Position numbers and translations under genes: made by a program
The notes under the pieces: model-generated
What the model was told of the DNA's origin: nothing
Databases searched by the model: none
The model's input: the letters and a program-made list of their open reading frames with translations, nothing else
Part shown: positions 7,188-7,316 of the stretch, piece by piece
Layout: every line of letters starts with the position of its first letter
Position numbering within the stretch: the stretch's first letter is position 1
IMG/VR virus record: IMGVR_UViG_2778261350_000002
Length of the DNA stretch: 7,316 nt
Reading direction: 5' to 3' (one strand)
Origin: a virus
Taxonomy: Duplodnaviria > Heunggongvirae > Uroviricota > Caudoviricetes

Positions 7188-7316
7188 ATGTCAAGACTCA
7201 AGACTCAAGACTCAAGACTCAAGACTCAAGACTCAAGACTCAAGAATCAAAAAAAAAAAAAAAAAAACAAACAAACAAAAAAAAAAACACAAAACGACTA
7301 AAAAAACAAACTAAAA
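7188..7316 (+). CDS. neuO: 5' end of a phase-variable gene with a heptad-repeat N-terminus; candidate polysialic acid O-acetyltransferase (neuO-like). Partial: the window ends inside the low-complexity tract
   Basis: ATG 7188 with AGGA 7 nt upstream, then TCA and AAGACTC repeats encoding M-SRLKTQD-SRLKTQD-SRLK... The AAGACTC heptanucleotide right after the start codon, downstream of an endosialidase tailspike in a P22-like prophage, is the described arrangement of neuO in CUS-3. In this repeat configuration the ATG frame reaches TAA at 7299-7301. The frame with positions congruent to 2 mod 3 stays open to the window end. The catalytic part of the gene is not in the window. Confidence 0.5.
7191..7248 (+). 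repeat. Heptanucleotide tandem repeat (VNTR): 7 perfect copies of AAGACTC plus 1 degenerate copy
   Basis: Perfect period-7 tract 7191-7245. Written as AAGACTC, the units are at 7193-7199, 7200-7206, 7207-7213, 7214-7220, 7221-7227, 7228-7234 and 7235-7241, followed by AAGAATC (7242-7248). A 7-nt unit changes the reading frame with each gain or loss. Confidence 0.9.
7249..7316. repeat. Homopolymer A19 followed by CAAA/A-rich low-complexity sequence to the window end
   Basis: 7249-7267 is 19 consecutive A, then CAAACAAACAAAA AAAAAAA CACAAAACGACTAAAAAAACAAACTAAAA. Extremely A-rich and atypical for enterobacterial coding DNA. Confidence 0.9.

Follow-up and report, generated by a model that had tools for sequence, protein, structure and literature searches.

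Start codon and first repeat units of a probable neuO phase-variation locus at a broken contig end in a CUS-3-like Escherichia coli prophage

Positions 7188-7248 of IMG/VR virus record IMGVR_UViG_2778261350_000002 (Caudoviricetes; 7,316 nucleotides (nt), the whole stretch being called the window here) very probably hold the start codon of neuO, the gene for the polysialic acid O-acetyltransferase NeuO, together with the first units of its heptanucleotide poly-psi repeat, in a CUS-3-like prophage of Escherichia coli K1 whose array has been cut by the end of the contig. The eight units seen are a lower bound imposed by assembly, because the contig breaks within the array and related arrays continue differently, and the true copy number and the phase state are not readable from the window. 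The locus belongs to a system described before, from which it differs by allelic detail only. It adds no new biology, as neuO phase variation, which in K1 E. coli has been connected with immune evasion and resistance to phages, is already characterised genetically, biochemically and structurally. The features at the 3' end of the window are as follows:

7188-7192, + strand: neuO start codon and the two bases before the array (ATG-TC, the latter opening codon Ser2), read from the sequence; both alleles of the two bases occur among complete genomes
7193-7241, + strand: poly-psi variable-number tandem repeat (VNTR) of neuO, represented by seven perfect AAGACTC units, a lower bound for the true copy number
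7242-7248, + strand: AAGAATC in the sequence, which may be a degenerate unit 8 or else erroneous bases at the onset of the contig-end tail
7249-7316, no strand assigned: A-rich low-complexity tail at the contig end, with A in 56 of 68 bases

The original prediction, made from the letters of the window, described seven perfect units and one degenerate unit after an ATG, and this description was borne out by direct reading of the sequence, by Tandem Repeats Finder and by shuffling. The ATG occupies 7188-7190 and is followed by TC at 7191-7192, so that the array sets in 2 nt 3' of the start codon (ATG-TC-AAGACTC...), the same register as in published neuO. Tandem Repeats Finder reported a repeat at 7191-7250 with period 7, 8.6 copies, 98% matches and a score of 113, and the perfectly periodic stretch measures 55 nt (7191-7245). 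The 14-mer AAGACTCAAGACTC, equal to two units, was matched seven times with at most one mismatch, against 0.00 matches expected from 200 dinucleotide-preserving shuffles. Translation of three units gives the heptad RLKTQDS, as had been stated.

Assignment to neuO of a CUS-3-like prophage, also proposed originally, was upheld by the genes upstream and by comparison with a phage record. By megablast the best-matching phage record was Enterobacteria phage CUS-3 (CP000711), at 96.8% identity with an alignment reaching window position 7250. At the homologous place CP000711 is annotated with siaK1, then 'neuO ... poly(psi) domain; contains 19 copies of heptanucleotide repeat AAGACTC', then int. The array of the window likewise lies directly downstream of an endosialidase tailspike gene, in an order syntenic with CP000711. 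The two loci share the AAGACTC unit, its onset 2 nt after the ATG, the RLKTQDS coding, and the upstream tailspike and intergenic region (~99% identity). They differ in that the window array, unlike that of CUS-3, is cut by the contig end and followed by A-rich sequence which is not neuO. The tailspike-neuO junction was present in 194 of 5426 complete E. coli genomes.

The original prediction had placed the true downstream frame beyond the window and had proposed a search there for a hexapeptide-repeat acetyltransferase, and the expected gene was found in a sister prophage. Contigs with an identical tailspike were retrieved by exact-protein look-up, and among them was a 305-kb contig from another assembly (L003) with an identical tailspike of 981 amino acids (aa) and a single mismatch in the 6104 nt upstream of the array. 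This contig reads ATG-TC-(AAGACTC)x13-GTTTTTCGTTGATGATAATGGG, that is, 13 perfect units and no variant unit, and the array is followed by GTTTTTCGTTGATG... and a NeuO body. The frame from TTT-TTC-GTT encodes 214 residues, aligns over its full length to PDB 3jqy, 'Polysialic acid O-acetyltransferase' (E = 3e-141, two substitutions), and carries the Hexapep domain. A phage integrase gene comes next, so that in the sister contig, as in CUS-3, the NeuO body and the integrase both lie downstream; the integrase is outside the window, and the int-proximal position of neuO is seen in this relative. The acetyltransferase body is absent from the window but present in the sister contig and in all 22 complete loci described below. 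Judging from these relatives, the true sequence downstream of the array is predicted to be GTTTTYCGTTGATGATAATGG..., and the neuO body and the integrase gene of the strain itself should sit on another contig of its assembly. With 13 units the sister contig, the closest relative, is OFF. The two substitutions relative to 3jqy are Phe-Phe for Phe-Ser at the start of the body and Ile for Val a few residues on, with no other differences. Immediately downstream of its array (6196-6210) the sister contig reads GTTTTTCG, in place of the GTTTTCCG of other loci (L001 10171-10185).

Published work provides the frame rule for this locus. According to PMC3046976 (citing Deszo et al. 2005), the VNTR is situated 2 nt 3' of the start codon and its length varies through slipped-strand events, 2-93 copies occur, full-length NeuO (ON) is made only at multiples of three, and NeuO becomes catalytically more efficient as RLKTQDS heptads, one per three units, grow in number. 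Among 64 complete genomes 3-53 repeats were counted and 65.6% were OFF (PMC13001214); the same source reports within-culture repeat variation by fragment analysis, and for other strains it documents high-frequency variation inside a clone and switching of capsule O-acetylation by fragment analysis and mass spectrometry. Transcription of neuO is additionally DsdC-dependent (PMC9659370). In this mechanism, which is established for the family, the array gains or loses AAGACTC units by slipped-strand mispairing and, because it begins 2 nt after the ATG, only multiples of three fuse the ATG to the acetyltransferase body (ON); each three units insert one RLKTQDS heptad, and all other counts yield a short peptide (OFF).

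To re-check the frame rule we compared 22 loci in which neither side of the array is cut short: the CUS-3 reference, 17 complete E. coli genomes, the sister contig and three IMG/VR contigs. Their copy numbers were 8, 9, 10, 10, 12, 12, 13, 13, 14, 15, 16, 18, 18, 19, 21, 23, 24, 30, 30, 30, 34 and 53. Copy number therefore varies between lineages, from 8 to 53 units among these loci, and is not the invariant count that would have spoken against the original prediction. Starting from the ATG, the open reading frame (ORF) reached full length (237-286 aa) in the 11 loci whose copy number is divisible by three and in no others, being short (22-143 aa) in the remaining 11, so that the rule 'full-length ORF if and only if the copy number is a multiple of 3' held in 22/22. 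As the loci were hand-picked from match lists, the ON fraction of 11/22 is not a population estimate. MS7163 has 21 units, in agreement with PMC13001214, and RefSeq annotates a full 'acyltransferase' coding sequence from the ATG in ON genomes, whereas for most OFF genomes its annotation is limited to an internal ORF of 336 nt. The IMG/VR locus L018 has 8 units and a 38-aa product and is OFF. The junction from array to body was GTTTTYCGTTGATG in all 22 loci and never an A-run, and the sequence after the array was GTTTT[C/T]CGTTGATG in every one of them.

The second codon differs between alleles: the window and 14 of the 22 loci have TCA (Ser), whereas reference CUS-3, MS7163, S88 and IHE3034 have TTA (Leu), the reference thus reading ATG-TT where the window reads ATG-TC. 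The TC allele adds two periodic bases 5' of the first full unit (window 7191-7193 versus L001 10036-10038).

The 3' end of the window departs from all of these loci. The window is the complete contig NOOY01000063.1 (L004; 7316 nt) of draft assembly GCA_002519865.1, with identity over 1089-7316, and the window end is therefore a contig end. The junction into the tail reads AAGAATC-A19-CAAACAAAC..., and the tail is 82% A, where the maximum of any other 68-nt stretch in the window is 53%. All alignments to the 194 carrier E. coli genomes end at window positions 7250-7253. A search of 7236-7316 against E. coli genomes in distant mode, limited by the low-complexity filter, gave no match, and the most complex 25-mer of the tail had 0 matches in 100,044 representative genomes. 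The variant junction AAGACTCAAGACTCAAGAATC had 0 matches in viral contigs and 14 in metagenome contigs, all in unrelated heptamer-like repeats, none in CUS-3 and none before an A-run. The tail at 7249-7316 does not belong to neuO; most likely it is an assembly or sequencing artefact.

Taken literally, the original interpretation would mean that the window holds eight real units and genuine sequence up to 7316, with an OFF allele stopping at 7299-7301 and another frame leading to the acetyltransferase. The frame statements made then are mechanically true of the letters: the ATG frame reads MSRLKTQDSRLKTQDSRLKNQKKKKKNKQTKKKTQND* and ends after 37 codons at 7299-7301, and the frame congruent to 2 mod 3 runs open up to the window edge. 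An eight-unit allele also occurs naturally, in L018. Nevertheless L018, like every complete locus, passes from the array into GTTTTYCGTTGATG and never into an A-run. The tail moreover sits at a contig end and is unmatched in the 5426 E. coli genomes and the representative genomes, the junction is unmatched in a CUS-3 context in viral and metagenome contigs, and short reads would normally be expected to span a true 56-nt array, so that no contig break would be expected there. We regard the literal interpretation as very improbable. The statement that one more unit or two fewer would join the two frames happens to fit the true rule at n = 8, which is mere coincidence, and both frames had been read from an A-rich tail absent from related loci.

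Real biology could also produce such an end, if a rearrangement or insertion had exchanged the rest of the array and neuO for A-rich DNA and left a dead, degenerate locus. CUS-3 regions are mosaic, and insertion sequence (IS) elements disrupt the tailspike in some genomes. However, the base composition of the tail is far from anything else in the window (82% A versus at most 53%), no match to it was obtained in E. coli genomes or in the 100,044 representative genomes, the near-identical sister prophage keeps an intact neuO, and the sequence ends at the contig end after only 68 nt. Such an event is hardly credible here.

A break of the assembly within the array, the preferred explanation, is seen in related contigs too. 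Of two further short-read contigs sharing the tailspike, L006 stops at the neuO ATG and the Logan contig L005 after 30 periodic nt. A clean end within the array is seen in three IMG/VR contigs, and short-read assemblies evidently break at the neuO VNTR. The 55-nt periodic stretch of the window and the stop of the Logan contig after 30 periodic nt would fit a break in a de Bruijn graph. Both the 37-codon ORF and the 'open frame' come from artefactual sequence, and the window gives no ON/OFF state. The proposed OFF configuration was not sustained, as it rested on the 68-nt A-rich contig-end tail and on a count cut by assembly. A true count of 8 would make the allele OFF, like L018.

Several points weigh against this explanation. 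The artefact status of 7249-7316 is drawn from its absence elsewhere and its contig-end position and not from reads, and the neuO body has been seen in relatives and not in this particular strain. Nor is the tail demonstrably a decayed copy of the repeat: when tested by ungapped register agreement and by local alignment against 500 shuffles, its alignment score was reached by 126 of the 500, which is not significant, and this candidate was rejected. Finally, AAGAATC stands at exactly unit 8 in the complete genome MS15052 as well, and unit 8 of the window could thus be real.

Were AAGAATC a genuine interruption, which might damp slippage, only the sequence from 7249 onwards would be artefactual. 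Finished genomes do show imperfect units. MS15052 (L002) has seven perfect units followed by AAGAATC AAGAATC AATAATC (units 8-10) and later AAGAGTC AAGTCTA (units 19-20), and MS1718 (L041) has AAGACTA at unit 9; the remaining arrays examined were all perfect. Imperfect units nevertheless amount to only 6 of 432 in the 22 complete loci (four of the six being C-to-A changes), the sister contig has 13 perfect units, and AAGACTCAAGACTCAAGAATC was without CUS-3 context among its 14 metagenome matches and had 0 viral matches. The change in the window is also C to A, immediately beside the A-run. A genuine interruption is accordingly unlikely, and the C-to-A change in unit 8 is probably contig-end junk as well. 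The coincidence with MS15052 could reflect chance, a real interruption or a systematic error mode of the repeat. If the interruption is genuine, its presence at the same unit in MS15052, a genome of unrelated lineage, would suggest an 'anchor' mutation that is recurrent or recombined. We consider it quite unlikely that unit 8 is such an anchor stabilising the neuO phase, or else a systematic C-to-A error about 55 nt into the array; if a systematic sequencing or polishing error of this kind did exist, it would corrupt published neuO repeat counts.

For ON/OFF calls at neuO, and at contingency loci in general, the array needs to be spanned into unique sequence on both sides, because short-read assemblies break within the VNTR and contig ends may mimic coding frames. 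Long reads, Sanger sequencing and fragment analysis are suitable sources for such calls.

Haemophilus influenzae and Neisseria have simple-sequence contingency loci in 5' coding regions as well, the CAAT tetranucleotide repeats of lic1A being one example. Like neuO, these loci carry, right behind the start codon, a repeat unit of a length not divisible by 3, and slipped-strand gain or loss of units switches translation on and off; they differ from neuO in unit length and organisms. In neuO the length of the in-frame repeat additionally tunes enzyme activity (PMC3046976). OatWY of Neisseria meningitidis W-135/Y is chromosomal capsule-locus cargo and not prophage cargo. It was the second-best match of the sister contig's NeuO body (PDB 2wlc, E = 4e-31) and belongs, like NeuO, to the left-handed beta-helix hexapeptide acyltransferases that have sialic-acid capsules as substrate. 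PMC3046976 describes no N-terminal heptad domain for OatWY.

AAGACTC arrays also occur outside CUS-3, at L017 4427-4503 (- strand), L022 3097-3173 (+ strand) and L025 8479-8520 (- strand). The first two are environmental IMG/VR contigs with a degenerate array of 11 units, five of them perfect, just upstream of ...TTAACATGCAGAAG, and the third has six perfect units in AT-rich DNA of a 243-kb viral contig.

Upstream of the array, the window contains two further features:

4089-7034, + strand: endosialidase tailspike gene of a CUS-3-like P22-type prophage, 981 aa, supported by its ORF, by Pfam and by its match to siaK1 of CP000711
7035-7187, + strand: tailspike-neuO intergenic region with promoter-like sites and a Shine-Dalgarno-like AGGA

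The tailspike carries the Pfam domains Head_binding, End_N_terminal, End_beta_propel, End_beta_barrel, End_tail_spike and Peptidase_S74. The intergenic region shares 98.9-99.1% identity with the best matches among the 194 carrier genomes of E. coli. A consensus promoter scan returned three sites against 0.8 expected. The promoter-like site at 7143-7171 has the form ATGACA-17-TAAAAT with TG as extended -10, and another occupies 7100-7128; these are matches to the consensus only. The Shine-Dalgarno-like AGGA is found at 7177-7180, 7 nt 5' of the ATG.

About 63% of the window aligns to CP000711, and the block at 1131-2327 (- strand) differs from reference CUS-3. It contains three small ORFs (1131-1676, 1610-1963 and 1956-2327; 181, 117 and 123 aa) in a cargo slot flanked on one side by a gp16-like DNA transfer gene and on the other by the Arc/Mnt-Ant immunity region, in the place of the hkcB / YafO-type genes of the reference. 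Their proteins gave no Pfam match above the cut-off and matched PHROGs 6324 and 4293, families of unknown function, with a weak holin-like match of the 117-aa protein (phrog_689, E = 2e-5). In several finished genomes the CUS-3 tailspike is split by IS elements of the IS66 or IS3 family (for example L010, MS1657, 1-1835) while neuO is intact, which suggests that the prophage has decayed but kept its cargo gene.
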